Assembly (NCBI GenBank): GCA_049322575.1
Contig: JBMORQ010000027.1
Span: forward strand, 9,092 to 73,091
DNA: 64,000 nt
DNA from: Patescibacteria group bacterium
Lineage (GTDB): Bacteria > Patescibacteriota > Microgenomatia > UBA1400 > PJMF01
Direction of reading: 5' to 3'
Under the pieces are notes generated by a model that saw nothing but the letters and a program-made list of their open reading frames with translations, searched no databases and was not told where the DNA came from. A program made the translations under genes and the position numbers. Below, in pieces: positions 2,617 through 62,888 of this stretch; position 1 is the stretch's first letter; each line of letters opens with the position of its first letter.

Positions 2617-2868
2617 TTGCCAGTCATAGTTAAAGCTAAGAAAAATCAAAGCACCAACGATGTTATCCGACAGTTCCGTAAACAAACGGCTACAGCTGAT
2701 ATTGTTCAAATTGTCAAAGATCGACGCTACTTTAAAAAACCATCTCAGGTTCGCGCTGAAAAAACTATCGAAATGAACCGCTTGCGCAAACGCGCCCGTT
2801 CCCTAAAGAGAATGAAGAATATTTCTCCCCAAGTTTTATCTCGCATCAACGAGAGATTGGGAAGTTAA
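2617..2868 (+). CDS. rpsU: 30S ribosomal protein S21.
   Basis: 83 aa and highly basic. MPVIVKAKKNQSTNDVIRQFRK...YFKKPSQVRAEK...RLRKRARSLKR matches the S21 pattern. TTG start with SD. Confidence 0.85.
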   Translation: MPVIVKAKKNQSTNDVIRQFRKQTATADIVQIVKDRRYFKKPSQVRAEKTIEMNRLRKRARSLKRMKNISPQVLSRINERLGS

Positions 2869-2894
2869 TTTTTCAACTTCGATTACAACAAAGA

Positions 2895-2925
2895 AAAACC
2901 CCGCGTAACAGCGGGGTTTTTGGTT
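2895..2925. terminator. Rho-independent terminator, bidirectional, between the convergent rpsU and ORF 2985..3527.
   Basis: A-run, stem ccccgc (2899-2904) / gcgggg (2911-2916), loop gtaaca, then a T-run (2917-2921). Confidence 0.7.
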
Positions 2926-2984
2926 TCTTTTATTTTTTGCTTTGGGTTGAACGATTTTGGTTTTAAGTTGGTCTCTAATCAAGG

Positions 2985-3527
2985 TTATTTTCTTGGCTTT
3001 ATTTTCGCCCTAATCGAAAACTCCCATTGATCGCCATCACTGGTATCAAAGCTGGTGGAGTTAGTTAAGCTATGGTAGTTCACCAAGTGGTTACTCAGAG
3101 TCTCTTCTATTTCTTTTTTCTGTTCGTTGATTTCTGCAATTTGCACTTTTAAATTAACAATTTGTGGATTGGATTGCATTTGTGAGCGACGCTCTTTGAC
3201 GGTGGCAGAGAATTGATCCAACTGAGTTTGAGCCTCAGCAAGCTGGGCGTCATTCTCAAAAACGCTTTTCAAGCTACTGCGCTTTTCTGCTATTTCCCTA
3301 TTTAATTTGGTTAGCTCCTCGGCGTGTTTTTCGATCAGGTTTTGCAGTGAGCCCAAAGTTTCAGCCAATTTGTCAGACTCAGCAACTTCCACATCATTGC
3401 TGGAGTCAACTTTTTCCGATTCTGCGGAAGTCGCATCGCCCATAACCTCGGCGGCCAACTCGTCCCCGCTTGGCAAGTCATCATTAGTTGCGACTGTGGT
3501 GGTTTTCATTTTTGCGTCATCACTCAT
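2985..3527 (-). CDS. Hypothetical acidic coiled-coil protein.
   Basis: 180-aa ORF. The N-terminus is acidic and low-complexity. The central region (LAETLGSLQNLIEKHAEELTKLNREIAEKRSSL...QLAEAQTQLDQF) has heptad-like periodicity. No recognisable catalytic motif. Confidence 0.55.
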   Translation of the reverse strand: MSDDAKMKTTTVATNDDLPSGDELAAEVMGDATSAESEKVDSSNDVEVAESDKLAETLGSLQNLIEKHAEELTKLNREIAEKRSSLKSVFENDAQLAEAQTQLDQFSATVKERRSQMQSNPQIVNLKVQIAEINEQKKEIEETLSNHLVNYHSLTNSTSFDTSDGDQWEFSIRAKIKPRK

Positions 3528-15787: not shown

Positions 15788-15871
15788 GCCTCTGTGGTGG
15801 AATTGGTAGACGCGCGAGACTTAAAATCTCGTTCCGGCAACGGAGTGTGGGTTCGATTCCCACCGGAGGCA
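15788..15871 (+). tRNA. tRNA-Leu (anticodon UAA). Class II with a long variable arm. CCA not encoded.
   Basis: Acceptor gcctctg/cggaggc. Anticodon stem cgaga/tctcg with loop cTTAAaa. T-arm gtgggTTCGATTcccac. Confidence 0.9.
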
Positions 15872-15991
15872 CTTTCTAGTACTATTGTATATATGTATAT
15901 GTGTGCTAGAAGACAGCTCGGGAGACGGCGAGCAAAAATCGATGACAGCTGATTGTTGTAAACAATAAGCCAGTCGACACAAATTAAGAAA

Positions 15992-16065
15992 CGGAGAATA
16001 GCTCAGATGGCTAGAGCGCACGGTTTGGGACCGTGAGGTCGCAGGTTCGAGTCCTGTTTCTCCGA
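15992..16065 (+). tRNA. tRNA-Pro (anticodon UGG).
   Basis: Acceptor cggagaa/ttctccg. D-arm tagctcagatggctagagc. Anticodon stem cacgg/ccgtg with loop ttTGGga. T-loop TTCGAGT. Confidence 0.9.
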
Positions 16066-16071
16066 CACATA

Positions 16072-16101
16072 AGAAAATCCGGCACACGCCGGATTTTTTT
16101 A
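16072..16101 (+). terminator. Rho-independent terminator after tRNA-Pro.
   Basis: Stem atccggc (16077-16083) / gccggat (16088-16094), loop acac, followed by T7. Confidence 0.7.
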
Positions 16102-16266
16102 TGTATTTCGACAGGACGACTTGCACCCGATCAAGCGAAATCAGAAAAATAAGATAGCTTGAGCCTGACGAGGGTGAGTCCTGTTTCCAAATTACTTCTC
16201 AGACTTCGATCAAGGATGAGCCTATTTTGTAGTAGAATTGTGTAAATCCTATGTGAAAGTCAGTTA

Positions 16267-16947
16267 ATGAAAACAAAACAATCATCATTAAAACTTAACA
16301 GGCTTCCATCCATAATTTTCCTGACAACCATAGTTTTTTTCGCTTTCGTTTTTGTTGGAACTATTTATTTTAAAATATTTAAAAGCAATACCGCTCTACA
16401 ACCAAAGATCGCCGATAACCAAGAGTGGATTAATAAAAATCAACACGACTTTACGCTGATTTTTGTTGATATGTTTGATCAGGCAAAACAGTGTTCTGAA
16501 AAGGGCAACATTCCACACATTTTTTCGGACTATCTTGATAATTGTGATGGATTAATCCGCTCGCGACTTGATTCATTTAATTCTCTCCTAAGCATTGATA
16601 CAGCCACTGCTACAGAATCACGGAAACCAATTTATTTCATTCGCCTGAATGAAGGTGGATATATTGAAAAACTATTTCAGTCAGGAGTTTATTATCAAGA
16701 TAAAATTGACAATTCAAATGATCTAAAAATAAAATATGTTTTAGAGGGTAAAAAAAGTCCACATCCATTCCCCATGTTTACTTGTGATGGCGGAGACGAC
16801 CTTCCTTGTAACTGGCTGCCTCTAAAAATGATTCTTCCAGACAGACGACTATTAAAGGATTTTTATTCTGAAATCGAGCTAATTTATCCAATTAAAAATG
16901 AATCAGGAGAAATAATTGGTGCGGTCGTCATTTTATACGCTGATTAA
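16267..16947 (+). CDS. Hypothetical membrane-anchored protein (N-terminal TM helix, extracytoplasmic domain).
   Basis: 226-aa ORF, AT-rich. N-terminal TM helix IIFLTTIVFFAFVFVGTIYF. No recognisable domain. Confidence 0.5.
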   Translation: MKTKQSSLKLNRLPSIIFLTTIVFFAFVFVGTIYFKIFKSNTALQPKIADNQEWINKNQHDFTLIFVDMFDQAKQCSEKGNIPHIFSDYLDNCDGLIRSRLDSFNSLLSIDTATATESRKPIYFIRLNEGGYIEKLFQSGVYYQDKIDNSNDLKIKYVLEGKKSPHPFPMFTCDGGDDLPCNWLPLKMILPDRRLLKDFYSEIELIYPIKNESGEIIGAVVILYAD

Positions 16948-17026
16948 AATCAATTATTGTTAAAAATTGCTGCAAAACCTCCAAATCCCTCAACAATTAT
17001 TTAAATTTTCCTGCTAGAATACACAC

Positions 17027-17893
17027 ATGACAGGAATAATTGGTGCGATTATTGGTGCGACTGGTTTCGGCACAGCCAATATCGTTATCAAAAAATCACT
17101 TTCAACATTAACCATCCCTCAAACACTCATGATGTCGACACTGTCTGGCATCTTTTTTTTGACAATCTTCGCTTTGCTTTCTCATGGATTTGCTGATATT
17201 ACTTTATCAACTTTTCTGGCAGCTATAGCTTTAGCCGGTGGCGAAACCTGTTTATATCTAATTCTCTACAAAACCTTTGATGTGAGTAACGTGACGGTAG
17301 CCGCTGCCGTTTCAGGCACTTATCCACTACTTTCTACACTTGTTACAGCTTTGTTGTTCTCTGAGTTTCCCTCACAAAGCCGACTGTTTTTCATCTTTTT
17401 ACTTGTTGTGGGCGGTATTGTCACCAGCATCGATTGGAACGGTGTTTTCAAAAATGGCTTCGATAAAAAGGACTTAGTGAAGGGTTTTGGTTGGATTGTG
17501 GCCACAACTTTTATTCATGCCTTATACTTTCCTCTTCTGGGCGGTTTTACGGCCAATGGTGCGTGGCAAACCAAACTACTTTTAATAAAAATCGTGTCGG
17601 CGATCTTGTTGTTCATAGTGTTTTTCGTGATAAGAAAGCAAAGCGTTTTGCCTTCAAAAGACAGAATGCCTTTCACTTCTTTGCTTGGATTGTTAGAAGT
17701 AATTGGATGGGCAGGGTATAGCTGGGCCAGCAATAGCACAGATGAACAAAAGGCCGTATTAATAGCCGCGCTCAATTCATCATCGTTGGTCACCGCAATC
17801 TTGGCATATTTCTTTCTCAACGAAAAACTGTCAAAATTCCAATATCTTGGAATAATCATGATCATAGTTAGTCTTACTGGACTATCGTTTTAA
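17027..17893 (+). CDS. EamA/DMT-superfamily transporter.
   Basis: 288 aa, about 10 TM helices in two repeated halves. No soluble domains. Confidence 0.7.
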   Translation: MTGIIGAIIGATGFGTANIVIKKSLSTLTIPQTLMMSTLSGIFFLTIFALLSHGFADITLSTFLAAIALAGGETCLYLILYKTFDVSNVTVAAAVSGTYPLLSTLVTALLFSEFPSQSRLFFIFLLVVGGIVTSIDWNGVFKNGFDKKDLVKGFGWIVATTFIHALYFPLLGGFTANGAWQTKLLLIKIVSAILLFIVFFVIRKQSVLPSKDRMPFTSLLGLLEVIGWAGYSWASNSTDEQKAVLIAALNSSSLVTAILAYFFLNEKLSKFQYLGIIMIIVSLTGLSF

Positions 17894-17895
17894 AT

Positions 17896-18999
17896 TTGAA
17901 AGATAAAATGCAACATCAAGATATTCACCCAACAAACCAGCACTCAGTAAAAAATACTAGCTCCACACCGGTTCATAAAGCTCACCAAACTCCCTTAAAC
18001 CTCAATTCAGAAAATTCTTTCATGACAAAAACAAAAGCTTTCTTGGGCGAGTTACTGGAAAAAATTGGCAGTAATCAAGTCGCTGTAATAATCGTCTCTG
18101 TTATCTTTTTTGTTTTAATCATGTCCGCAGCTGTTTTTGCCATGAAATCATCAGATAAAACAACTCGGCCAGAACAATCAACCAATTCATCCGAAAAGAA
18201 ACCGTCAAAACTCAGTTCGTTACTTGGCAAACTCGATTCTGATAAAAAGGTTAGTCCTTCTCCAAGTAACACCGTTGCACCTGTTCCCAGTGACAAACCA
18301 ACTCCCACTGCAACAACTGGCCCCAGCAAAACCCCAACTCCAAAACCGACAGCCAAGCCTTCCAGCACCCCAACCCCACTGCCGACTAACACCCCGGCTC
18401 CAACCTACACACCTGCGCCCACCAGAACACCTAACCCACCAAGAACCAGAATCTCCTTTCCCACAAATGGGCAAGTAATTACTGCTAACGAAGTTAATCA
18501 CACCATCTGCATCGTGGACGTTCCCGATGGTGGAGATTTTACTGGAGCAACCAAGAGAACCAACATTGATAACGCTGGTTGGTCAGCCTATCAAGGGCCA
18601 AGCACGACTTGCCCCACCTTAACTGATGGCAGTCACAGCATCGCTATTCAGTTTAAGAACCAATATGGCGAGGAAGGCAATGTCGCCAGTGTTAGCTACA
18701 CCTACAAATACGAAAATCCTAATCAGTGCACCGACACAGATGGCGGCCAAGTTTTTGAAACTGCCGGCACAACTGCCGGTGGAAGCTCAAAACTCTGCCC
18801 CGAAAACAACTGCGCCACTTTCTGCCCTGGTACGAGCTGTACCGACAGTTGTGGTTCCTACATTAATGGCAGCCTTCGTAGCACAACCGAGGGCGAGTAT
18901 GTCATTGAGTGGTTTTGCAACAATGGCGGTTTAACCTACAACGTCAGAATGTGCGACAGCCGAAGATGCGAAAACGGGGCCTGTCAGCCTGTTCACTAA
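17896..18999 (+). CDS. Secreted, membrane-anchored protein with a Pro/Thr-rich linker and a C-terminal Cys-rich domain (about 16 Cys).
   Basis: TM anchor (VAVIIVSVIFFVLIMSAAVFA). PT-rich linker (TPTATTGPSKTPTPKPTAKPSSTPTPLPTNTPAPTYTPAPTRTPNPP). C-terminal domain rich in Cys/Gly/Thr/Asn (CPENNCATFCPGTSCTDSCGS...CDSRRCENGACQP). Confidence 0.65.
   Translation: MKDKMQHQDIHPTNQHSVKNTSSTPVHKAHQTPLNLNSENSFMTKTKAFLGELLEKIGSNQVAVIIVSVIFFVLIMSAAVFAMKSSDKTTRPEQSTNSSEKKPSKLSSLLGKLDSDKKVSPSPSNTVAPVPSDKPTPTATTGPSKTPTPKPTAKPSSTPTPLPTNTPAPTYTPAPTRTPNPPRTRISFPTNGQVITANEVNHTICIVDVPDGGDFTGATKRTNIDNAGWSAYQGPSTTCPTLTDGSHSIAIQFKNQYGEEGNVASVSYTYKYENPNQCTDTDGGQVFETAGTTAGGSSKLCPENNCATFCPGTSCTDSCGSYINGSLRSTTEGEYVIEWFCNNGGLTYNVRMCDSRRCENGACQPVH
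18280..18450 (+). repeat. Low-complexity Pro/Thr-rich coding repeat (PT linker) inside ORF 17896..18999.
   Basis: Degenerate (P-T/A/S)n units. Antisense ORFs here (18075..18392, 18220..18501, 18224..18478) are artefacts of this composition. Confidence 0.5.
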
Positions 19000-19019
19000 C
19001 TAACCGACATTAACCACGT

Positions 19020-19413
19020 TTATTCTAACTGGCCGATTTTGAAACTCTGCAGGTATTCCTGTGCTTTAGGAGAGTGGTCGTTACCCGTACCCGGCTTGGT
19101 ATGAAAGATCCCAGAGGCATCTTTGCCACAGCCCTCGAGAATTGCTTCACCACCGGGGTGTTTGGCCGCTGCGATATATGATGTCACGTCATAGACATTA
19201 CCATCAACGGCAAACCAACAATCCTCTGGGGAAGCATGCTGGGAAATTTCATCTAAGCTGATTGTTTTTGACTGTTGTTCTGGGTTGTTTGATTCTACGG
19301 AGGTAGGTTGAGCTGGCTCCTTTGCCGAATTGCTGACTGGCGCAGAAGAATTGTTCAGGCTACATCCAGCCAAAACCAAACTTGTAAATAAGAGTAGAGA
19401 AAAAGTTTTTTTC
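19020..19413 (-). CDS. Cytochrome b5-like heme-binding-domain lipoprotein. GTG start at 19413 is preferred over the ATG at 19493.
   Basis: Lipoprotein signal VKKTFSLLLFTSLVLAGCS (lipobox LAGC), preceded by an AAAGG SD. C-terminal cyt-b5 fold with the HPGG motif (AAKHPGGEAILEGCGKDASGIFH). Confidence 0.6.
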
Positions 19414-19543
19414 ACAGAAACCTTTCTGTTTTGTATTGGAGAACAATTCTGTCTTACAAAGGCGAAAATGACAACATTGAAAAAATGATACATAGTAATA
19501 CTTAATAGACTTACTGCCTGAAATGTAGTTCAATAAAAAAAGT

Positions 19544-19822
19544 ATGAAGTTTAATCCCATAATCAGTAGAATTTCCTCTGGTTTTAAGAGCGCTAGTACC
19601 GGAAGTAGGATCAAGACAACCATAAGCTCAGAGGTAAGACAGCAACAAAACCAACAGTTACAATCTCAGCTCAATCAAGCAGTCGTCGAGCGAAGAAAAC
19701 TGGCTGCTGCTGAATTTGTAAATCCAGATCCATTGAAGAGCAATTTTAGACAAAGAGGTGAAATACTTGCCAGAAAAATTGCTGATTTACAGGCAAAAGC
19801 TAATGCTGAGACCAAAATTTAA
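19544..19822 (+). CDS. Hypothetical small Gln-rich protein.
   Basis: 92-aa ORF between the cyt-b5 and VKOR genes. No motif, so coding status is uncertain. Confidence 0.35.
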   Translation: MKFNPIISRISSGFKSASTGSRIKTTISSEVRQQQNQQLQSQLNQAVVERRKLAAAEFVNPDPLKSNFRQRGEILARKIADLQAKANAETKI

Positions 19823-19823
19823 C

Positions 19824-20240
19824 TTAAACTTTCTCTTCCGGTTTCTTCAACCAGACCAGTGACAAAACAAACACAATCAGCATAATAATTTGACACATCA
19901 CACAAACCGGACAAATAACACGCTCAACGAAAATCTCCAAAATGGTCAACCTTAAGCAGAAAAGCATACCAAAAGCTGTCATACCCACGGCCATTTTTTT
20001 ACTCTTAAAGAGGGTTGAAAGAAAAATCACCATATAGCCGATTAGGCCAATTATAGCCACTAGTACGCCAAAAACAGTTGCCAGAGCACCTTTGGTGATG
20101 GGTTCGCAGTTGACAGTCTCACTTATGTTGCAGATGCCCAATGTCTGGGATGTCATATATTCGTAAAGTAGGTAAGTGGCCAAGCCAACACCTATAATAG
20201 ATAAAAACATGATAATTTGGCGAATGAGTTTTTCTTTCAT
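19824..20240 (-). CDS. Vitamin K epoxide reductase (VKOR)-family membrane protein, standalone with no fused thioredoxin domain.
   Basis: Loop Cys pair (GICNISETVNC) and TM CxxC active site (ICPVCVMC). About 4 TM helices. Start moved to the internal Met (MKEKLIRQ...) to avoid overlap with recQ. Confidence 0.65.
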   Translation of the reverse strand: MKEKLIRQIIMFLSIIGVGLATYLLYEYMTSQTLGICNISETVNCEPITKGALATVFGVLVAIIGLIGYMVIFLSTLFKSKKMAVGMTAFGMLFCLRLTILEIFVERVICPVCVMCQIIMLIVFVLSLVWLKKPEEKV

Positions 20241-20297
20241 ACGGTTTTTTGTAAGGATAAGTTGATAAGCTACGCTAAACATAGCAAAAAAAACTCA

Positions 20298-21737
20298 ATG
20301 ATTCCAGAGTCTACTTTAAAAACATTTTTTGGCTTTCAAGATTTTAGACACGGTCAAAAGGAGATTGTCGATTCAATTTTGTCTGGCAAAGACACTCTGG
20401 CACTTTTGCCAACAGGTGGAGGTAAGTCAATTTGCTTCCAAGTGCCTGGACTGATTATGAAAAATCTTTCACTTGTTGTGTCACCGCTTATTTCGTTGAT
20501 GATTGATCAAGTACACAATCTTCAAAAAAGAAATATCCCAACATCTTGTATTCATAGCGGTCTAGACAAAGAACAACTAAAAAAGATCTTTTCCGAAATA
20601 TTATCTAATAAATACAAATTTGTTTATGTCTCGCCTGAAAGATTGGCTAATGATAAATTTCTGCGATTATGTCAGCAAATAACAATTTCTCAATTAGTTA
20701 TTGATGAGGCGCACTGTATCTCGATGTGGGGTAATGATTTTAGGCCGAGTTATAAAAGAATTCCTGAGTTTGTCAGCAAATTAGAAAATAGGCCAGTAAT
20801 GTCGGCTTTTACCGCTACAGCTACCAGAAAAGTGGTTAATGATATTGCTTCCTCACTTCAATTAAATAAACCAGCAATTTTTTATAACAGTTTCTCAAGA
20901 AAAAACCTTAATATTTGTGTTTATAGATGCGCCAGCCACAATCAAAAGATTTTGGCACTCATTTATCTATTACAAAAACATTTTGGTCAGTCAGGAATCA
21001 TCTACACAGCTACCAGAGAAGACACCAAGCAAGTTGTAGATATCGTTAGAAAATTTTCCTGGAATGAAAAATTGAGTAAGATAAAAATTGAGTATTATCA
21101 TGGAGCACTTAGTGCAGAGAGAAGGAAAAAAGTTCAAGAATTATTTCTTTGCAAAAAGCTACAAGTAATTTCCACTACTAATGCGTTCGGTATGGGTATA
21201 GATCAACCTGATATCCGCTTCATTATCCATTATCAAATTCCCGGTAATTTGGAAAATTATTACCAAGAAATTGGGCGAGCGGGAAGAGATGGCAATGATT
21301 CTCGATGCTATTTACTATTTTTTCCTTACGACGTAACAATTCAACAGGAAATGATTAACTCGAATAAAAAAATAACAATTGCTAGAAAAAACTACCTGTT
21401 TAACCAATTAAAGCAAATGATTTATTATGCCGAAAATAAACAATGCCTTCATCGATTCATTCTTAAATACTTCGGTGAACACTCGACAGCAAACTGTGAA
21501 ATACGCTGTAATCACTGTACAAAAGAAAGGCATCTCAAAATCAATTTTGAGCAAGATTCATTTCCGGAAATAACACATAACCCTTCTCTCAACCTGCCCA
21601 ATCTCACTGAAGAACAGCTAATTTATTGCCAACTACTTCAACCTAAAAAACTAGAGCATTTTTTAACCATCCCAGGTATTGGCGCAGCTTGGAGGCAAGT
21701 TTGGCTAAGCTCATCCAGAGAAAACATGGTAGAATAG
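20298..21737 (+). CDS. recQ: RecQ-family ATP-dependent DNA helicase (helicase core plus Zn-binding RQC, no HRDC).
   Basis: FGFQDFRHGQKEIV, LALLPTGGGKS, DEAHCISMWGNDFRP (DEAH box), helicase motifs to QEIGRAGRDG. Zn-binding Cys cluster (CLHRF...CEIRCNHC). Start adjusted to MIPEST... Confidence 0.85.
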   Translation: MIPESTLKTFFGFQDFRHGQKEIVDSILSGKDTLALLPTGGGKSICFQVPGLIMKNLSLVVSPLISLMIDQVHNLQKRNIPTSCIHSGLDKEQLKKIFSEILSNKYKFVYVSPERLANDKFLRLCQQITISQLVIDEAHCISMWGNDFRPSYKRIPEFVSKLENRPVMSAFTATATRKVVNDIASSLQLNKPAIFYNSFSRKNLNICVYRCASHNQKILALIYLLQKHFGQSGIIYTATREDTKQVVDIVRKFSWNEKLSKIKIEYYHGALSAERRKKVQELFLCKKLQVISTTNAFGMGIDQPDIRFIIHYQIPGNLENYYQEIGRAGRDGNDSRCYLLFFPYDVTIQQEMINSNKKITIARKNYLFNQLKQMIYYAENKQCLHRFILKYFGEHSTANCEIRCNHCTKERHLKINFEQDSFPEITHNPSLNLPNLTEEQLIYCQLLQPKKLEHFLTIPGIGAAWRQVWLSSSRENMVE

Positions 21738-27998: not shown

Positions 27999-28700
27999 AT
28001 GCCCAAACAACTCCAAATTATTATTGCCACTACCTTAATACTAATTGTCGGAGCAGCCATTATCACCAAACTAAATCCTCGGCCCATCTCTCTTAAATCA
28101 CCCAATCCAAACCTTGTTCAAAATACAAATAACCAAGTAAAGGAACCAATGACAGACTCGTTACAAAATCCTACCGCTCGACCATCTCAAAAAGCAGGTC
28201 CTCCGGCGATGCAGATTGATCAGAGCAAAAAATACTCAGCGGTGTTAGAAACCTCGGCCGGTACAATAGTGATCAGCCTTAATGCAGCTCAGACTCCGAT
28301 TACCGTCAATAATTTTGTGTCTTTGGCCCGCGAGGGTTTTTATGACAACACAATCTTTCATCGAACCATCAAAGATTTTATGATTCAGGGTGGTGATCCA
28401 CAGGGCAATGGAACTGGCGGCCCCGGGTATCGCTTCAACGACGAGCCTTTCCAGGGGGAATACACCAGAGGTACAGTCGCCATGGCCAACGCCGGTCCCA
28501 ACACCAATGGTAGTCAATTCTTCATTATGCATGCCGATTATGCTTTGCCCAAAAATTACGTAATTTTTGGCAAGGTGGAGAAGGGTTTGGAAACGGTTGA
28601 TACTATCGCCAACGCTCCAGTTGTGCGAGGTGCTTCTGGTGAATTATCAAAACCGGCCCAAGCCGTGACTGTCAAAAGTGTTACAATTGTAGAAGAATAG
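27999..28700 (+). CDS. ppiB: Peptidyl-prolyl cis-trans isomerase, cyclophilin type, membrane-anchored.
   Basis: N-terminal TM helix. Cyclophilin core FHRTIKDFMIQGGDPQGNGTGGPGY...GTVAMANAGPNTNGSQFFI. Confidence 0.9.
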   Translation: MPKQLQIIIATTLILIVGAAIITKLNPRPISLKSPNPNLVQNTNNQVKEPMTDSLQNPTARPSQKAGPPAMQIDQSKKYSAVLETSAGTIVISLNAAQTPITVNNFVSLAREGFYDNTIFHRTIKDFMIQGGDPQGNGTGGPGYRFNDEPFQGEYTRGTVAMANAGPNTNGSQFFIMHADYALPKNYVIFGKVEKGLETVDTIANAPVVRGASGELSKPAQAVTVKSVTIVEE

Positions 28701-38264: not shown

Positions 38265-39736
38265 TTCATTCCTTTCTTGAACAAGTGCATGGCTTGAACA
38301 AATTGAGCTGACATGTGAGATAAACTATCTTGATGTAGAGGAATCATGCTTAAAAATAAAGTCGCTTCGAGAAGCCGTAGCTCTCTGATACTAATCCCAT
38401 TTTTTTCGACAAATTTGGTAAAAATCGAAGCTACCTCAAAATCTTGGAATTCTGGTTTGTTAAAATGCAAAGCAATTCCTTGTTGATCAAGTTGTAAAGT
38501 AAACATATCTGACATGATGTAATCATAGTTGCCAAGAAATGAATGAGATAGTTTGCAAATGTCATATATCTGTGGACGATAGGTCTCATCGATAGATTTG
38601 TTCCAGCCTCTTGGATCAATTAGCTTGAGTTGTTTTGACGCTGTGTCAAACATAATATTTGAGGCACATAGATCTCCATGAGAGAAATGTAATTCATTTC
38701 TACTTTTTTTCTTTACAATTTTCTCAACCGAGAAAAGAAGTTGGTCACAAAAATCATCGTAAGAACCAAAACCCTCAAGTTTTGCCAAAATCTCCAAACG
38801 ATCAATCTCCATCAATTTTTTTGTTTCTTGGATTCTTTTTCTTACTTTATCAACAAATAAAGAATGCATTTGCTCCCTGTAAACAACCCCATCAACCTTT
38901 TTTTTCGGAGCTGTGTCAAGACAATCTTGTATTTTTTCTAGAAAGTCTCTAAAGACTTCCTCTTTTTGAAAAGACCCATTTTTGAACAACACTGCTGCAT
39001 CAAAGGAGAAAATTTTTTCAACCTGATACGAAGCAGTTTGAGAGTCTTTGTAAAACACTCCCACATGAGGAAAAAAAGGTCTCAGTGAAGCAGGCACATT
39101 GGAAAGAAAGTTATACTCTGCCTCCATTTTATCAGTCTTAAATGATTGTTTTACAAAATAATAACAATTATCCACAGAAATGCTATTAAAATATCTTTTA
39201 TCGAGGTTCTGATTGAAAAGTAATATCGAATCAGTTGGATTCTCTAAATCCAACATCGATTGAGTTAAATCAACATCTATTGATTCTCTTTGTAAATCTA
39301 CCAATAGCATCTCATCGGAGTCTCTCTTTCTCAGAACTTCGAGATAGGGTACCGAAAAGATATATGGTTCTTCTAACCTCATCAGCTCATTTTTAAAAAA
39401 GGTTTTCTCGCTAATAGCAGCGGCTTTTTTTATTGCAAATTTTATTTTGTTCTCTCCGATGGGAAAAAAACGAGCGCTGTAATATATTAAGTTTGTATTT
39501 GATAAATCACCCTGGTAAATGAAACCATCGCTGATCGATTTATAGAGTTCCTTCCAGGTTACAACCTTGTCTGTCGTTAGTACAACATTGCGAGCTTCGA
39601 TGCCAAGTTTATCGATCAGGGTTTCAACATATTTTTTCTTACCTAATACTATCTCTGAATAGTTACTTACCCCAAGTTTACCTGATAAAAAGGAATTTGT
39701 AGAAAAACTTGTATTAATTATGTAAATTGTGTTCAT
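38255..39736 (-). CDS. APH/choline-kinase-fold small-molecule kinase (LicA/AmgK-like) with a long N-terminal extension.
   Basis: The C-terminal region has the Brenner motif HGDLCASNIMFD and downstream IDPRG. The N-terminal roughly 250 aa are of unknown fold. Confidence 0.6.
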   Translation of the reverse strand: MNTIYIINTSFSTNSFLSGKLGVSNYSEIVLGKKKYVETLIDKLGIEARNVVLTTDKVVTWKELYKSISDGFIYQGDLSNTNLIYYSARFFPIGENKIKFAIKKAAAISEKTFFKNELMRLEEPYIFSVPYLEVLRKRDSDEMLLVDLQRESIDVDLTQSMLDLENPTDSILLFNQNLDKRYFNSISVDNCYYFVKQSFKTDKMEAEYNFLSNVPASLRPFFPHVGVFYKDSQTASYQVEKIFSFDAAVLFKNGSFQKEEVFRDFLEKIQDCLDTAPKKKVDGVVYREQMHSLFVDKVRKRIQETKKLMEIDRLEILAKLEGFGSYDDFCDQLLFSVEKIVKKKSRNELHFSHGDLCASNIMFDTASKQLKLIDPRGWNKSIDETYRPQIYDICKLSHSFLGNYDYIMSDMFTLQLDQQGIALHFNKPEFQDFEVASIFTKFVEKNGISIRELRLLEATLFLSMIPLHQDSLSHMSAQFVQAMHLFKKGMKWL

Positions 39737-40610
39737 GACGATTCAGCTTTTGAATATTTCTTGTAAAGAATACTATAAGTATGCAGAAACAGATAAAAAC
39801 GAAAGCATAATAGATCGAACTGTATTGATTATTATACTGCAAACCAAAGTTATTGATAACATTGTCCAATACAAAAGGGTATGCCTGATCAATTCCCGTT
39901 GACGTGATGGTCATCACAGCATATAACTCAGTAACCCAGCCTAAAACGGTTAAAGAAAGCATTAAAAAAATCTTTTCCGCACTATTAATCCCTATTTCTT
40001 TAAATATCTTTTGTAAATGGCTAATTGCCAAAACAAGGTAATATGACAAACTTGAATGCTTTTTTCCTACCATATAAATCAAAAAGATTGAGAGTATCTT
40101 GGGCAATAAAACAATACCAAACCAAATAAATACTCCCAACAAAAGAGAAATTGTAGAGTTGGCTCTTAACGTACTCGTGCTCCCCGTGACAGCTTGTAAA
40201 AACAGGGGCGGTAACAGGATGATAAGATCGAAAAAACGGATGTAAATCATTACAGCAATAGTCTTCAAAAGGCAACTTTTGCAGTAACTACTAACTAATG
40301 CGACTAGACCAAAGTCTTTAATTAAGGGAAGCGTTACGTTGCCAAAAGAAGCTGACACAAACTGAAAAAAGATGATATTTTTTAGACCAACCCCTCTTAC
40401 TCCCATCAGCAACCAAATCCTTGCGGCACGAAACACGTGCGACAACAGATACAACAAAACAGAAAAGAACAATAGTTTAAAATTTGATTGGTTAACATTG
40501 AGCAATAAGTAGAAGATTGCCCACAAAAAATATACCGACAACAAAATCATCAAAAGTGGATGGGAGTTGGAACCATTGCGCTTGTGATCAGACATAGTAT
40601 TACTGTTCAT
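39714..40610 (-). CDS. Polytopic membrane protein, UPF0104 / lysylphosphatidylglycerol-synthase-TM-like (flippase-like).
   Basis: 298 aa, about 8 TM helices. Of the type commonly encoded next to DPM1-like GT2 enzymes. Overlaps both neighbours. Confidence 0.5.
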   Translation of the reverse strand: MNSNTMSDHKRNGSNSHPLLMILLSVYFLWAIFYLLLNVNQSNFKLLFFSVLLYLLSHVFRAARIWLLMGVRGVGLKNIIFFQFVSASFGNVTLPLIKDFGLVALVSSYCKSCLLKTIAVMIYIRFFDLIILLPPLFLQAVTGSTSTLRANSTISLLLGVFIWFGIVLLPKILSIFLIYMVGKKHSSLSYYLVLAISHLQKIFKEIGINSAEKIFLMLSLTVLGWVTELYAVMTITSTGIDQAYPFVLDNVINNFGLQYNNQYSSIYYAFVFICFCILIVFFTRNIQKLNRHEHNLHN

Positions 40611-58413: not shown

Positions 58414-60321
58414 ATGAACACTGGTTTCTTTAAGAAATGTTTGATTCTTTTGATAGGTCTTCTCGCTCCTTTTACTAGCCAACCAATCCGTGCTGAAACG
58501 AAACATTTTGAGAGCTATCTAAACACTACATACTCGGTTAATGAAGATGGCTCAACATATGTTGAACATAATTTCCAAATCAAGAACTTAACACCAACTT
58601 TCTTTGTCAACAAATACGGTCTTCAATTAAGTTCTGGAAATATCGCTGATGTTCGTGTCACCAACGGCAATCAAGCTATTGATGCTGAAGTTGTTAACAC
58701 GGACAACAAAACAACTGTTGGCATTACTTTCCCAGACAAGGTTGTTGGTGAAGGGAAAATAAGACGCTTTACCATAAGTTACAAAAATGAGGATATTTCT
58801 CAAGTTTCTGGCCAAGTATTAGAAGTCAGCATCCCAAAATTAAACGATCCCACTGCTTACGATAAGTATGGTGTGACTCTAATCACTCCTTTGAAATTCG
58901 GCTATCCAAACCGTGTTACTCCTGAATCGTTTACCCAACAAATTGCCGGCAATAAGGTCGAGCTACACTTTAGTAATCTGGCCGGCCAAAGCATTTCCGC
59001 AATCTATGGTGAAAAACAAATCTTTGAACTCAAGCTTCGTTATATACTCGAAAACGATCGTAACCAACCTGTAATTAGCCAAATTACTTTACCTCCAGAT
59101 ACCTCCTTCCAAACAGTGCACTACCAAACTATCGAGCCAAAACCGCAAAAAATTGAGCTCGATAATGATGGTAATTGGATAGCCACTTACCAGTTGAACA
59201 ACAACTCCCAGGTTGAAATAAAGGCTCAAGCCAAAGTAATGCTTACGCTTGATCAAAATAAAGAAATACCTGTCTTTCTACCAACCGGAAACCACCTCAA
59301 AACCAAAGAATATTGGCCAGTTAAAAACCCCGACATCATCACTCTTGCAACTCAAAATCCCACTGCAGAGGACATCTATAATTTTACGTCCACTACACTT
59401 AGCTACACTACAGAGCCTCTATCAATTGATCTGAAACGTCTTGGTGCTCAAGCAGCAATCGAAAATCCCAGCAAGTCAACTTGCCAAGAATTCACTGATG
59501 TCTTCATAACATTGGCTAGAGCCAATGACATACCAGCTCGCCGTGCAACCGGCTTTGCCTATTCCGAAAATGAAAAGCTTCGTCCACTCAGTCTACCTGG
59601 TGACGTCCTGCATGCTTGGCCAGAATTTTTCGACCAAGAAAAGAAAGTATGGAGACCGATTGACCCCACCTGGGGAAATACAGCTGGCGGAGTAGATTAC
59701 TTCAACCAATTTGATCTAAACCACATAGTCTTCGCCTTTAATGGAGAATCAAGCGAACGACCCTACCCAGCCGGTTCATACCTGCAATCAGAGACACCCC
59801 AAAAAAACGTTGAGGTAACCTTTGCCAAAGATTTTCCAGAGACCCAAACCAAAATACTTGCCACTCTCAAGCCTCAGAAGATTGGTTTTATTGACTTTCC
59901 TGGAACATACCGTTTAGAACTGGAAAATGCTACGGGTCGCGCATGGTACAACCTTAATGTCAGTTATCGAACTGATGATCCAGAAACATTAATATCAACC
60001 CAAGAAAATCGGCAGCTCATTCTCCTGCCTTATCAAAAAATTGAAGTGCCTTTTAGGGTTTATAATAGGTCTTTGTCATCATCTTTTGACAAACAAATAC
60101 AAATCATCGTCGAAGTTGGTAAAAAAGATAGCTTAACTCATGACTTCCAAGTCAACTCAATCCCAGAATTCAACAGCCTCAACCAATATAAAGTCCTTTT
60201 CTCCCTCTTGGTCTCAGGAAGTATCATCGGCGCCCTTACAACCGGGAGTCTACTCGTTTTTAGACGCAGAAAACAAAATTCTCTACGTGGGAAAAGCCAA
60301 AAAACTGAGGAATCGACTTAG
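58414..60321 (+). CDS. Secreted transglutaminase-like (papain-fold) enzyme with signal peptide and C-terminal TM anchor.
   Basis: Signal peptide (LILLIGLLAPFTSQPIRA). Catalytic Cys in STCQEFTDVFITLARANDIPARRATGFAY. His in DVLHAWPEFF. Asp in RPIDPTWG. C-terminal TM helix plus basic tail. Starts 4 nt after uvrA. Confidence 0.7.
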   Translation: MNTGFFKKCLILLIGLLAPFTSQPIRAETKHFESYLNTTYSVNEDGSTYVEHNFQIKNLTPTFFVNKYGLQLSSGNIADVRVTNGNQAIDAEVVNTDNKTTVGITFPDKVVGEGKIRRFTISYKNEDISQVSGQVLEVSIPKLNDPTAYDKYGVTLITPLKFGYPNRVTPESFTQQIAGNKVELHFSNLAGQSISAIYGEKQIFELKLRYILENDRNQPVISQITLPPDTSFQTVHYQTIEPKPQKIELDNDGNWIATYQLNNNSQVEIKAQAKVMLTLDQNKEIPVFLPTGNHLKTKEYWPVKNPDIITLATQNPTAEDIYNFTSTTLSYTTEPLSIDLKRLGAQAAIENPSKSTCQEFTDVFITLARANDIPARRATGFAYSENEKLRPLSLPGDVLHAWPEFFDQEKKVWRPIDPTWGNTAGGVDYFNQFDLNHIVFAFNGESSERPYPAGSYLQSETPQKNVEVTFAKDFPETQTKILATLKPQKIGFIDFPGTYRLELENATGRAWYNLNVSYRTDDPETLISTQENRQLILLPYQKIEVPFRVYNRSLSSSFDKQIQIIVEVGKKDSLTHDFQVNSIPEFNSLNQYKVLFSLLVSGSIIGALTTGSLLVFRRRKQNSLRGKSQKTEEST

Positions 60322-61513
60322 AAACTATCTGCAGATCAAGGATCTATCTCCTCGCATCGCGAAGATGGTTAAACTCGCTGTTAAGCTCGAATATCAGATA
60401 CTTTCCAGCGAACTTGAGTCATTGCTAGTTGAAGCAGAACTTATCCGTACTCTGCAACCTCAATTTAACGTCCTACTAAAAGACGATAAATCATCACTAT
60501 ATATAGTAGTAACAAAGGAAGAGTTCCCCAAGATAGTGAAAACTCGTAAACGAGAACTTGTCAGAAAGAATATTTCTGGGCAGGTAATTGGTCCTTTTCC
60601 TAGTAGTTATAAGTTAAATGAGGTACTAAAAATTGTCAGACCAATTTTTAAGTGGTGCGATAAGAAAACAAGAGATAACCAAGCCTGTTTCTATCACCAT
60701 CTTGATCTTTGTTCTGGTGCCTGTGTCAGACAAATCACCCCTGAGGAGTACCAAGCAAATATTAAACAATTAGTATTATTTCTGCGCGGGAAGAAAAAGC
60801 TTGTATCAAATAATCTGAGAATGATGATGAAACAAGCCGCAAAAGAAGAAAAGTTTGAATTAGCGAACAGATACAAACAGATGATTCAATTAATTGAAGA
60901 GGTAACAAATCCAGAGTTTAGACTAAAGCCCGATTTAGCCTTACCAGTTTTCCAACTTAAACAAAAAGAAATTGGTTTGATCAATCTTTCACAGATGATG
61001 GGCACATATTTAAATAATCTACCACCAAATTATCCGCTTAACAGAATCGAAGGTTATGATGTCTCCAACATTCAGGGAACCAATGCTGCCGTCTCCATGG
61101 TTGTTTTTATAAATGGTCAACCGGAAAAGAAACTTTATCGTGTCTTCAATATCAGAACACTTAAAACCCCCAACGATTTTGCCATGCTTAAGGAAGCACT
61201 AATAAGACGTCAGAACCATCCAGAGTGGGGAAAACCTGACTTGATAATCATTGATGGGGGAAAGGGTCAACTCAAATCAGCACTTGCTGCCTGGAAGTGG
61301 CCTAATCCAGTTATCAGCATTGAAAAGCATCCGGATCGGCTAATTTTTCCACGAATTACCTCCATCGAGGGCAGGAAAACCAGCGATTATTCTGTTATCA
61401 AGCTTGAAAAAGAACACCCAGCACTAAAACTGGTTGCAAATGTACGCGACGAATCCCATCGCTTTGCAAAAAAACAACACATTAGATTAAGGACTAAGAA
61501 TCTGCTATCATGA
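60140..61513 (+). CDS. uvrC: Excinuclease ABC subunit C, short form: GIY-YIG, Cys-rich, UVR and RNase-H-like endonuclease domains, without the C-terminal (HhH)2 domain. Start uncertain.
   Basis: GIY-YIG (PGVYSFLDAENKILYVGKAKKLRNRLRNY), Cys cluster (HHLDLCSGAC), UVR helix (ELANRYKQMIQLIEEV), endonuclease domain (IEGYDVSNIQGTNAAVSMVVF), ends DESHRFAKK...*. 457 aa versus about 600 for canonical UvrC. The ATG at 60140 overlaps the upstream ORF by 182 nt. Confidence 0.8.
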   Translation: MTSKSTQSQNSTASTNIKSFSPSWSQEVSSAPLQPGVYSFLDAENKILYVGKAKKLRNRLRNYLQIKDLSPRIAKMVKLAVKLEYQILSSELESLLVEAELIRTLQPQFNVLLKDDKSSLYIVVTKEEFPKIVKTRKRELVRKNISGQVIGPFPSSYKLNEVLKIVRPIFKWCDKKTRDNQACFYHHLDLCSGACVRQITPEEYQANIKQLVLFLRGKKKLVSNNLRMMMKQAAKEEKFELANRYKQMIQLIEEVTNPEFRLKPDLALPVFQLKQKEIGLINLSQMMGTYLNNLPPNYPLNRIEGYDVSNIQGTNAAVSMVVFINGQPEKKLYRVFNIRTLKTPNDFAMLKEALIRRQNHPEWGKPDLIIIDGGKGQLKSALAAWKWPNPVISIEKHPDRLIFPRITSIEGRKTSDYSVIKLEKEHPALKLVANVRDESHRFAKKQHIRLRTKNLLS

Positions 61514-61517
61514 GGTT

Positions 61518-61874
61518 GTGAAAGCTATAATTCGAACAATTATTGCCATCGCCATCCTAGCCTGGATTTTGCCGACAGTTGATTATTTAAATTGGACAAC
61601 ACTCTTAATCGCCGGGGTGGTTTTAACCATTCTTCAAAGTGTGATTAAACCCATACTAAAATTATTTTTCTTGCCGGTCAATATTGTGACATTTGGGCTT
61701 TTTTCTTTAGTTATCAACGTGATAATAATCTGGTTGCTAACTTTTCTGGTTCCCGGAATGCGCATTGATAACATTGTGCTGTTTGGTGTACCTCTGAACA
61801 GTTTTTTCTCTTTGTTATTGGTTTCAAGTCTGATCAGCTTTCTACAATCGTTTATCAGGTTTTTTATCAAGTAA
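61518..61874 (+). CDS. DUF360 / phage-holin-family-4-like small membrane protein (4 TM).
   Basis: 118 aa, four hydrophobic helices. GTG start after GAGG. Confidence 0.55.
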   Translation: MKAIIRTIIAIAILAWILPTVDYLNWTTLLIAGVVLTILQSVIKPILKLFFLPVNIVTFGLFSLVINVIIIWLLTFLVPGMRIDNIVLFGVPLNSFFSLLLVSSLISFLQSFIRFFIK

Positions 61875-61884
61875 CAGAAATTGA

Positions 61885-61890
61885 TATAAT
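61885..61890 (+). promoter_or_regulatory. -10 box within TTGATATAAT, 8 nt upstream of the ATG at 61899. A leaderless transcript for the 7TM/ATP-grasp operon is predicted.
   Basis: aaaTTGATATAATagcgagttATG. Confidence 0.4.
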
Positions 61891-61898
61891 AGCGAGTT

Positions 61899-62888
61899 AT
61901 GAAAAAAATTGTCATAAGCCTCTTTTCACTACTGTTGTTTGGTATTGTCCTGGGAGTTACCTCTCCAGAACGATATCAAGCTGAGGCACAAGAAACAAAC
62001 GGCTCTATAGAAATTCTTGAGGTTTTTGATCAAGATGGCAACCTATTTGACTCTGCCACTGATAGCAGCGAAGCAACTAACACCGGCAAGCTCGCCTCAG
62101 TTTCAGCAGAGGTTGAACAGAAAATTCAAGAAAAAAAGGATAAAGACATTACAGACACTAGTGGAAAGCAAAAGGGCAAATTAGCGTCATACCTTGACGA
62201 ACACCCAACCGGACCACTTTCTTGGCACAATCCTCTGCAAGTTGCCATCCGTGCCGCCATTGAAAAAGGTCTACCTGCCAATATTATTGTTCTATTACTG
62301 ATGTTTCCGATCATCGCCTCAATTATTGCCGCCTCTAGACATGTGGTTGGACTCAAAGGATTTGGTATCTATATTCCCGCCGTTTTAGCCGTTGCTTTGG
62401 TTTCAACAGGCATTCTAACCGGTCTGACGATTTTCATTGTCGTTTTAGCTGCCGCAATAGCAACCAGAACGATCATTAGAAAATTTCGCATGCCATATTT
62501 GCCAAGAACAGCCATGTTGATGTGGGGTGTATCGATTGTTACCCTGCTAGTTTTAATCGGTTCGGTTATTATGATAGAGAACTCAACCCTTCTCACTATC
62601 AGCATCTTCCCTGTGCTTATCATTATTCTTTTAACAGAAAATTTTATAGAATCTCAACAATTTAACAGCCAAAAAGAGGCCATAAAACTAACTGTGGAGA
62701 CCATTTTCTTGTCAATTCTCTGTTCCATATTCATCAGTAACGAGACGCTCCAAAAGGTTGTCATCCTGCGTCCAGAATTAACTCTACTTTTAGTTGCCTT
62801 TATCAACTATGCCATCGGCAAATACTCTGGACTAAGATTTCTAGAATACCTACGTTTTAGAGAAATTCTTAATAACAACAATGAGTAA
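61899..62888 (+). CDS. Seven-TM membrane protein of the 7TM/ATP-grasp-associated family (7TM-ITG-like, but lacking the inactive transglutaminase domain).
   Basis: Signal/TM helix, about 110 aa low-complexity ectodomain, then seven hydrophobic helices. The stop overlaps the start of the ATP-grasp gene by 8 nt (ATGAGTAA). Confidence 0.65.
   Translation: MKKIVISLFSLLLFGIVLGVTSPERYQAEAQETNGSIEILEVFDQDGNLFDSATDSSEATNTGKLASVSAEVEQKIQEKKDKDITDTSGKQKGKLASYLDEHPTGPLSWHNPLQVAIRAAIEKGLPANIIVLLLMFPIIASIIAASRHVVGLKGFGIYIPAVLAVALVSTGILTGLTIFIVVLAAAIATRTIIRKFRMPYLPRTAMLMWGVSIVTLLVLIGSVIMIENSTLLTISIFPVLIIILLTENFIESQQFNSQKEAIKLTVETIFLSILCSIFISNETLQKVVILRPELTLLLVAFINYAIGKYSGLRFLEYLRFREILNNNNE

Follow-up and report, generated by a model that had tools for sequence, protein, structure and literature searches.

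A VKOR, a cytochrome b5 lipoprotein and a cysteine-rich surface protein encoded side by side in a Patescibacteria genome: probable neighbours by insertion of a lineage-specific block

Three adjacent genes of a small, uncultivated, Microgenomates-like Patescibacteria group bacterium encode a cysteine-rich surface protein, a cytochrome b5-like lipoprotein and a membrane protein of the VKOR (vitamin K epoxide reductase) family, and the question is whether they form one extracytoplasmic redox system. The genes lie in a stretch of 64,000 nucleotides (contig JBMORQ010000027.1 of GenBank assembly GCA_049322575.1, positions 9,092 to 73,091 of the forward strand), which is referred to here as the window; coordinates without a locus label are those of the window. 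A preliminary description of this DNA had proposed the b5 protein as a candidate electron partner of the VKOR and the cysteine-rich neighbour as the likely substrate. We consider it probable that they are instead three independently transcribed envelope genes that became neighbours through a lineage-specific block of genes for exported proteins, placed between tRNA-Pro and a conserved recQ-VKOR pair. VKOR, b5 and the cysteine-rich gene belong to separate, recognised gene types that in most relatives do not stand side by side, and in this respect the locus is largely ordinary.

The layout of the locus is as follows.

15788..17893, + strand: tRNA-Leu, tRNA-Pro, orf226 (anchored by a transmembrane (TM) segment, four Cys) and an EamA transporter (by Pfam)
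17896..18999, + strand: gene A, encoding the immunoglobulin (Ig)-like/Cys-rich surface protein; open reading frame (ORF) of 367 amino acids
19020..19415, − strand: gene B, encoding the cytochrome b5 lipoprotein; 131 amino acids, GTG start, identified by Pfam and the NCBI name
19544..19822, + strand: orf92, an ORF of 92 amino acids between b5 and VKOR
19824..20240, − strand: gene C, encoding the VKOR; 138 amino acids, identified by Pfam and the NCBI name
20217..21737, + strand: recQ helicase, the divergent neighbour of the VKOR gene (Pfam DEAD, Helicase_C, RecQ_Zn_bind)

Gene A and the b5 gene converge across a gap of 20 nucleotides, while orf92 diverges from the b5 gene and converges with the VKOR gene, from which a single nucleotide separates it; the distance between b5 and VKOR is about 400 nucleotides. 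Because the strands alternate (+, −, +, −) and an opposite-strand gene, orf92, stands between b5 and VKOR, a single operon of gene A, b5, orf92 and VKOR is ruled out, and the four genes occupy at least three transcription units. A promoter/terminator scan is compatible with separate units and no more: promoter-like hexamers in 19446-19496 point both ways, and the scan gave no clear excess over what shuffled sequence would yield. The three genes had been described as an adjacent trio, a view that the mixed strands and the intervening, conserved orf92 do not bear out. The public NCBI annotation already calls gene C a "vitamin K epoxide reductase family protein" (P0001) and gene B a "cytochrome b5 domain-containing protein" (P0052).

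The surroundings of VKOR genes in relatives suggest how the neighbourhood came about. We scanned one genome per GTDB species, which gave 23 VKOR loci, most with 10 kb on each side. No b5 gene was found within 10 kb in any of the 23 (tblastn, with all 103 b5 homologs as queries), and none of the 23 carries a homolog of gene A. Six of the loci (L002, L003, L008, L010, L012 and L017) share the gene order of the window: recQ and mazG stand beside VKOR in all six, several add SNase and Elp3 on the same side and mur ligases on the other, and VKOR sits directly between recQ and tRNA/murC. The genes orf226, EamA, gene A, b5 and orf92 are absent from all six syntenic loci; in L003 a tRNA gene immediately adjoins VKOR where the block is missing. 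Between tRNA-Pro and VKOR, the 3.6-kb block from orf226 to orf92 is therefore an insert specific to this lineage. Positions 15788-19822 of the window thus delimit a variable region beside a tRNA gene. The GC content is 0.44 in the 18-20 kb interval and 0.36-0.38 in the flanks, a difference for which the Pro/Thr linker of gene A is partly responsible.

Within the insert, orf92 recurs beside b5 in another lineage. Its product is small, Cys-free, Gln-rich and probably cytoplasmic, and has no Pfam or NCBIfam match. An ORF of 83 amino acids at L030:9614-9865 (−) is 42% identical to it (E 2e-11) and takes the same divergent position beside b5; the L030 b5 is the one with the highest tblastn identity to the window b5 (51% in the best segment), and VKOR was not found in the 10 kb upstream and 1.3 kb downstream of b5 that are available there. 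A second b5 locus, L117, has an ORF of 87 amino acids in the position of orf92, with no detectable similarity to it.

The b5 side was sampled by a metagenome scan limited to the best 80 of its 170 b5 matches, plus targeted look-ups (83 loci, 702 kb). A VKOR gene is present in three of these loci (L084, L096 and L048), all from one clade of the candidate phyla radiation (CPR); the other 80 of the 83 are without VKOR. In L084 (+), b5 (1185-1556) is followed by VKOR (1583-1996) after 26 nucleotides, and in L096 (+), b5 (2347-2715) is followed by VKOR (2760-3176) after 44 nucleotides. L048:5519-7643 (+) contains, with minimal gaps, b5, a Cys-rich protein of 239 amino acids, a sortase (Pfam E 8e-22) and VKOR. 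The Cys-rich protein of this run ends in LAATG, a hydrophobic segment and KK, a tail that resembles a sorting signal, and the run looks like a surface-protein maturation operon that includes a heme protein. Among the three loci the VKOR proteins are 73-75% and the b5 proteins 54-61% identical, while the flanking genes differ; relative to the window proteins the identities are 39-43% for VKOR and 48-52% for b5. A single-copy gene in a genome of ~900 genes would come to lie within three genes of b5 in ~0.7% of cases per lineage, and thus ~0.5 chance cases are expected over ~70 lineages by our own estimate, against one clade observed besides the window; the window itself was excluded from the lineage count because it had been chosen precisely for its adjacency. 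Counted by independent lineages, the b5-VKOR linkage could therefore have arisen by chance. Less easily ascribed to chance is the operon-like spacing held in three fairly divergent genomes with differing surroundings, in one of them along with a sortase and the protein it probably processes; we regard this as a lead. A conserved module of VKOR, b5 and a Cys-rich protein finds no support from any of the three sides: 0/23 VKOR loci contain b5, 80/83 b5 loci lack VKOR, and neither gene was seen on any of the three contigs carrying a full-length homolog of gene A (see below).

The neighbours of b5 are otherwise heterogeneous, and a Pfam census of the 123 genes directly beside b5 in 70 non-redundant groups has no dominant partner (ArsR-type helix-turn-helix 4, Ferric_reduct 3, UDG 3, desulfoferrodoxin 2, VKOR 2). 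A Fre gene (Ferric_reduct plus FAD and NAD domains) directly follows b5 in L051 and directly precedes it in L063, and a Fre-like gene lies a few kb off in L073. Seven loci (L056, L076, L081, L092, L098, L108 and L109; for example L081:655-879) have, directly after b5, a gene for a 74-amino-acid protein with two TM segments, conserved His residues and no Pfam family, a candidate for a small membrane partner in heme binding or electron transfer. We considered both Fre and this small protein as partners of the window b5 and rejected them, as the window holds a homolog of neither. In one further lineage (L058, L060 and L110-L112; for example L110:6001-8087), b5 is followed after 12 nucleotides by a gene for a 573-amino-acid protein in which a DsbD/CcdA-type membrane domain is fused to a thioredoxin/AhpC-TSA domain, and an FNR-like gene is convergent with this fusion just downstream. 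In another lineage, genes for AhpC-TSA and a DsbA-like protein follow b5 at a distance of 1-1.5 kb. An enrichment of thiol-redox genes near b5 was nevertheless discarded: such genes occur in about 4 of ~72 lineages, which is near chance if they make up ~1% of genes and six neighbour slots are counted (an estimate). In L028/L029, genes for Fur, FTR1 and Ferric_reduct lie within 3 kb of b5.

Gene C encodes a member of the VKOR family (Pfam PF07884, E 9e-18; 65.2 bits, curated cut-off 27.5). Against NCBIfam NF011480 it scores 54.6 bits, which is under the equivalog cut-off of 120, and it is therefore a family member and not that equivalog. Hydropathy predicts TM segments at 8-26, 56-74, ~83-105 and 108-126, the four-TM core of the family, and a fused thioredoxin domain was not found in the protein. 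In an alignment of 28 CPR homologs (A1), the loop pair C37-x7-C45 is invariant, as is the CxxCxxC at the start of TM4 (C110-P-V-C113-V-M-C116); the invariant residues further include C95, R97, E102 and Q117. The preliminary description had thus been right about the family, the loop Cys pair, the CPVC motif (110-113) and the lack of a fused thioredoxin domain; the length is 138 rather than 139 amino acids, and the TM4 motif extends to CxxCxxC. With six invariant Cys, the CPR VKOR clade exceeds canonical VKOR proteins by two, namely C95, which sits in TM3, and the additional Cys of the TM4 motif. In one VKOR homolog, P0047, the C-terminus is extended by ~35 residues, of which 11 are Cys (GCCEDGCTDEDKLKCQDQSCCGGGCDCSNKSC); this tail would be cytoplasmic according to the predicted topology.

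The A1 profile matches two solved structures, Synechococcus VKOR (4NV6, E 1.5e-8) and a Takifugu VKOR-like protein (6WV9, E 0.003). C37 and C45 align with the loop cysteines of both, and the two alignments differ in TM4: the Synechococcus alignment pairs the catalytic CxxC with C113/C116, whereas the Takifugu alignment, which is gapless, pairs it with C110/C113 and places the invariant Q117 on the Tyr of the vertebrate TM4 TY motif, presumably Tyr139 in human numbering. The catalytic pair of the window VKOR is accordingly ambiguous by alignment, C110/C113 or C113/C116; all four canonical Cys are present, with a CxxC at the TM4 position in either case. On this point, as on the two axial His of b5, the check proposed in the preliminary description comes out in its favour.

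A VKOR of this kind is expected to work with a separate thioredoxin-like protein, and in some relatives that protein is encoded next door. In 7 of the 23 VKOR loci the divergent adjacent gene encodes a TM-anchored thioredoxin-like protein with the motif YGAYWCxHC and a weak Pfam Thioredoxin match (126-132 amino acids in six loci, fused to a further domain in L005), and this protein is the expected VKOR partner. This agrees with a published survey of 750 CPR genomes, 88 of which have VKOR beside a gene for an MdbA-like oxidoreductase (Meheust et al. 2019, PMC6744442). A standalone VKOR with a separately encoded MdbA/thioredoxin-like partner is indeed the published CPR arrangement (PMC6744442). 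The suggestion that the standalone VKOR is unusual does not, then, hold for CPR bacteria, given that arrangement and the 7/23 loci here.

The product of gene B is a lipoprotein with a cytochrome b5 domain, as had been described; both the N-terminal sequence and Pfam (PF00173 Cyt-b5, E 5e-20; 71.7 bits, curated cut-off 23.7) agree on this. Its GTG start is preceded by AGAAAGG, and its N-terminus, MKKTFSLLLFTSLVLAGC, is a lipoprotein signal with the lipobox LAGC (Cys18), which conforms to the pattern [LVI][ASTVI][GAS]C. After Cys18 follow a linker of ~35 residues and a b5 domain of the b558 type. Many members of the b5 family have AGC, SGC or ACS at the lipobox position and others an uncleaved TM anchor. 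Across 31 CPR family members (alignment A2), the HPGG His86 is invariant and His114 (DHS) is kept in at least 90%, and both axial ligands are thus present in the window protein. Cys66 and Cys96 (in the motifs DCW and GCG) are invariant among the same 31 homologs. In the PDB, the family profile best matches Ectothiorhodospira vacuolata cytochrome b558 (1CXY, E 5e-23), with which both His and both Cys align; 3OZZ likewise aligns with His86 and His114 at its ligand positions. We take it that the b558 cysteines at the positions of Cys66 and Cys96 form a disulfide. From these alignments, the window b5 is very likely an extracytoplasmic, heme-binding lipoprotein of the classical bis-His type, and it probably has one structural disulfide, Cys66-Cys96.

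The ORF of gene A contains the string quoted in the preliminary description, CPENNCATFCPGTSCTDSCGS, and the NCBI annotation starts it at the ATG at 18022, giving 325 amino acids (P0155). The predicted product has a short cytoplasmic N-terminus, one TM helix (62-80), a Pro/Thr/Ser linker (59% of residues 85-184 are Pro, Thr or Ser), an Ig/fibronectin type III (FN3)-like beta-sandwich (~185-272, two Cys) and a Cys-rich module formed by the last 96 residues (272-367, ten Cys). The membrane anchor and the PT-rich linker claimed earlier are both there, and the total of Cys comes to 12, not ~16; the N-in TM anchor and the linker also support the placement of the Cys-rich domain outside the cytoplasm. 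The protein has no Pfam match. A word-indexed homolog search with its C-terminal half returned zero matches, itself included, and an exhaustive HMMER search of 1.84 billion representatives with gene A returned 113 relatives. Nearly all of the 113 have only the first domain of ~88 residues in common with it, followed by nothing, by an NCNG-containing domain or by other modules, and one (P0158) repeats this domain 13 times, the repeats being labelled Big_13 by Pfam. The Cys-rich module is common only to P0156 and P0157, where its ten Cys are conserved. An AlphaFold2 model gives confidence (pLDDT) values above 90 for the Ig-like part and 45-63 for the Cys-rich part; in Foldseek its best PDB matches are the FN3-like modules of CbhA (3PE9), which reflect the Ig/FN3-like domain alone. 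The full-length homolog P0156 is encoded on three contigs of 2.7-3.5 kb, of which none carries b5 or VKOR. The ORF downstream of P0156, which has the same 21-nucleotide convergent spacing as its counterpart in the window, was considered as a hidden b5 and rejected, since it encodes an unrelated, cytoplasmic-looking protein. By its domain make-up the gene A product is a predicted type-II-anchored surface protein, one of many Ig-like surface proteins. With 12 extracytoplasmic Cys it is therefore likely a client of the VKOR pathway, as any secreted multi-Cys protein would be.

In the reading that we favour, three envelope genes brought together by an insertion, the VKOR would be the general disulfide-generating membrane enzyme of this organism. 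Its loop cysteines would re-oxidise a membrane-anchored thioredoxin-like protein of the MdbA/DsbA type, assumed to be encoded outside the window, and its TM4 CxxC would pass the electrons to quinone, by analogy with characterised VKOR proteins. The b5 lipoprotein would act as a one-electron carrier of the bacterial b558 type, with bis-His heme b on the outer face, and the Ig/Cys-rich protein would be a type-II-anchored surface protein and a client of the VKOR pathway. Gene layout, domain identities, conserved catalytic residues and the absence of conserved linkage are directly shown in this picture, whereas client status, quinone use, heme binding and topology are inferred. Several observations weigh against this reading. 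Homologs of the seven thioredoxin-like partners were not found in the 64-kb window by tblastn, and DsbA-like, AhpC-TSA and CcdA-thioredoxin queries likewise found nothing there; a scan of the window for an N-terminal hydrophobic segment together with CxxC retrieved only the VKOR itself and an unassigned membrane ORF of 298 amino acids (39714..40610). CPR bacteria are generally described as non-respiring (PMC5220378; PMC8080830) and as lacking respiratory chains, yet many of them keep a quinone-type thiol oxidase, which leaves the assignment of quinone as the acceptor tentative. Finally, the co-directional b5-VKOR pairs of the other CPR clade would be unexpected if b5 and VKOR never interact, a lead worth keeping in view.

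Two alternatives give the neighbourhood a functional meaning. In the first, the block would have gathered clients of VKOR beside their enzyme: b5 (with Cys66-Cys96), orf226 (four Cys) and the Ig/Cys-rich protein (12 Cys) would all receive disulfides through VKOR, and b5 would have no electron role toward it. The two b5 cysteines, invariant in the CPR family and aligned with the two Cys of 1CXY, suit this idea, and so does the content of the inserted block, whose proteins are all exported and Cys-containing except for EamA and orf92; the operon in L048 also puts a Cys-rich, sortase-substrate-like protein together with VKOR. Genes for clients of Dsb-type systems are, however, normally scattered over the genome, the clustering is not conserved in relatives, and the predictions hardly differ from those of the reading that we favour. 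We regard such clustering as unlikely.

The second alternative is the one from which the preliminary description started, with electrons passing from the substrate, possibly via a thioredoxin-like protein, to VKOR, then, possibly via quinone, to heme b5 and on to an external acceptor. Beyond the short b5-VKOR distance in the window, it has in its favour the other CPR clade, in which b5 directly precedes VKOR at 26 and 44 nucleotides (L084, L096) or is joined to it by the Cys-rich LAATG protein and the sortase (L048), and in which the pair persists despite b5 identities of no more than 54-61% and differing flanks. It is also consistent with the position of b5 beside other thiol-redox membrane genes in some lineages (the DsbD_TM-thioredoxin fusion; AhpC-TSA with a DsbA-like gene). 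Disulfide relays that deliver to a heme protein have a precedent in mitochondria, where Erv1 hands its electrons to cytochrome c. The linkage counts speak against a dedicated pair: no VKOR locus (0/23) has b5, 80/83 b5 loci have no VKOR, and VKOR is near b5 in one of ~70 independent b5 groups, the window aside, where our estimate for chance is ~0.5. The two modules b5-orf92 and recQ-VKOR each occur without the other in relatives, there is no b5-VKOR fusion among the 154 homologs listed, and the Cys-rich homolog examined, P0156, is linked to neither b5 nor VKOR. Literature searches returned no report linking VKOR with cytochrome b5 in bacteria, and a paper on a giant-virus VKOR mentions b5 solely in the context of a desaturase. 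As an account of this locus we find the model quite unlikely: the dedicated trio is unsupported, and what remains for b5 as an electron partner of VKOR is a weak lead from one other CPR clade.

In physiological terms, that lead would mean that in non-respiring and probably quinone-poor CPR bacteria a b5 lipoprotein on the outer face draws off the electrons of VKOR, or of the quinol bound to it, and so restores the oxidised form. We think it improbable, to much the same degree. If true, a heme carrier would take the place of the respiratory chain in disulfide formation of surface proteins, a bacterial counterpart to the mitochondrial relay from Erv1 to cytochrome c, and the window and the L084/L096/L048 clade would be two independent genomic traces of b5-VKOR coupling.

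A third possibility, very unlikely in our view, is that the b5 lipoprotein serves chiefly to capture heme or in iron metabolism at the surface of an organism presumably unable to make heme, is no redox carrier and has nothing to do with VKOR. Its surface tether with a long linker, the L028/L029 locus with Fur, FTR1 and Ferric_reduct within 3 kb, and ArsR-type regulators as the commonest immediate b5 neighbour would fit. Against it, the conserved classical bis-His ligands (the HPGG His in all sequences, the second His in at least 90%) are those typically seen in electron carriers, and the recurrent b5 neighbours are redox enzymes, the NAD/FAD-binding Fre and desulfoferrodoxin.

Much of what the locus contains was known before: VKOR and b5 are named in the public annotation, and both the standalone CPR VKOR with an MdbA-like partner and exported b5 domains have been published. 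If the b5-VKOR pairs of the other clade were a true partnership, they would reveal a new terminal step in the oxidative folding of proteins for a very large share of bacterial diversity and would give a function to the widespread b5 proteins of CPR bacteria.

Elsewhere in the window, a peptidyl-prolyl isomerase of the cyclophilin type (27999-28700, +; Pro_isomerase, E 7e-42), which has a membrane anchor at its N-terminus, is a further extracytoplasmic folding factor. At 58414-62888 (+), a secreted transglutaminase-like protein (Transglut_core, E 5e-13) is encoded upstream of a 7TM_transglut membrane protein (E 1e-23), with two ORFs (60140-61513 and 61518-61874) between the two genes.

Among known systems, the MdbA-VKOR pathway of Gram-positive Actinobacteria (Actinomyces oris, Corynebacterium) and its CPR counterpart (PMC6744442) come closest to the VKOR described here. 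They likewise combine a standalone VKOR with a monoderm-type envelope, their partner is a separately encoded membrane-anchored thiol-disulfide oxidoreductase, matched in 7/23 relatives by the adjacent WCxHC thioredoxin-like protein, and we count their link to sortase substrates and surface proteins as a likeness as well. The differences are that the 64-kb window has no partner gene and that the invariant Cys of the CPR VKOR clade number six (with the extra C95 and C116) and not four.

Synechococcus VKOR (3KP9, 4NV6) is the best match of solved structure (E 1.5e-8), with its loop Cys pair and TM4 CxxC aligned to those of the window protein. It has a fused thioredoxin-like domain, whereas the window VKOR consists of the four TM helices without such a domain; in our understanding, the YGAYWCxHC of the thioredoxin-like proteins in relatives resembles the active site of that fused cyanobacterial domain. 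The loop spacing sets the two apart, since the window VKOR has C-x7-C, as vertebrate VKORC1 does, and Synechococcus VKOR has C-x5-C.

For the b5 protein, the nearest counterpart is the E. vacuolata cytochrome b558 (1CXY), a soluble bacterial b5 that, like it, is extracytoplasmic and with which it shares the His ligands and the Cys (DCW, xCG). Unlike b558, the window b5 is a lipoprotein with a linker of ~35 residues, in a host without a known respiratory chain. The association of Fre with b5 in CPR bacteria has been published already, as clusters of pFre with b5-domain proteins (Hehenberger, Cahill et al., bioRxiv 10.1101/2021.11.17.468889). Those clusters likewise contain exported or membrane b5-domain proteins, presumed to be extracytoplasmic electron carriers; they differ from our locus in that the window has no Fre gene, and that the pFre paper centres on the MAPR-like cytb5M/MY class, whereas the window b5 is of the classical bis-His type.

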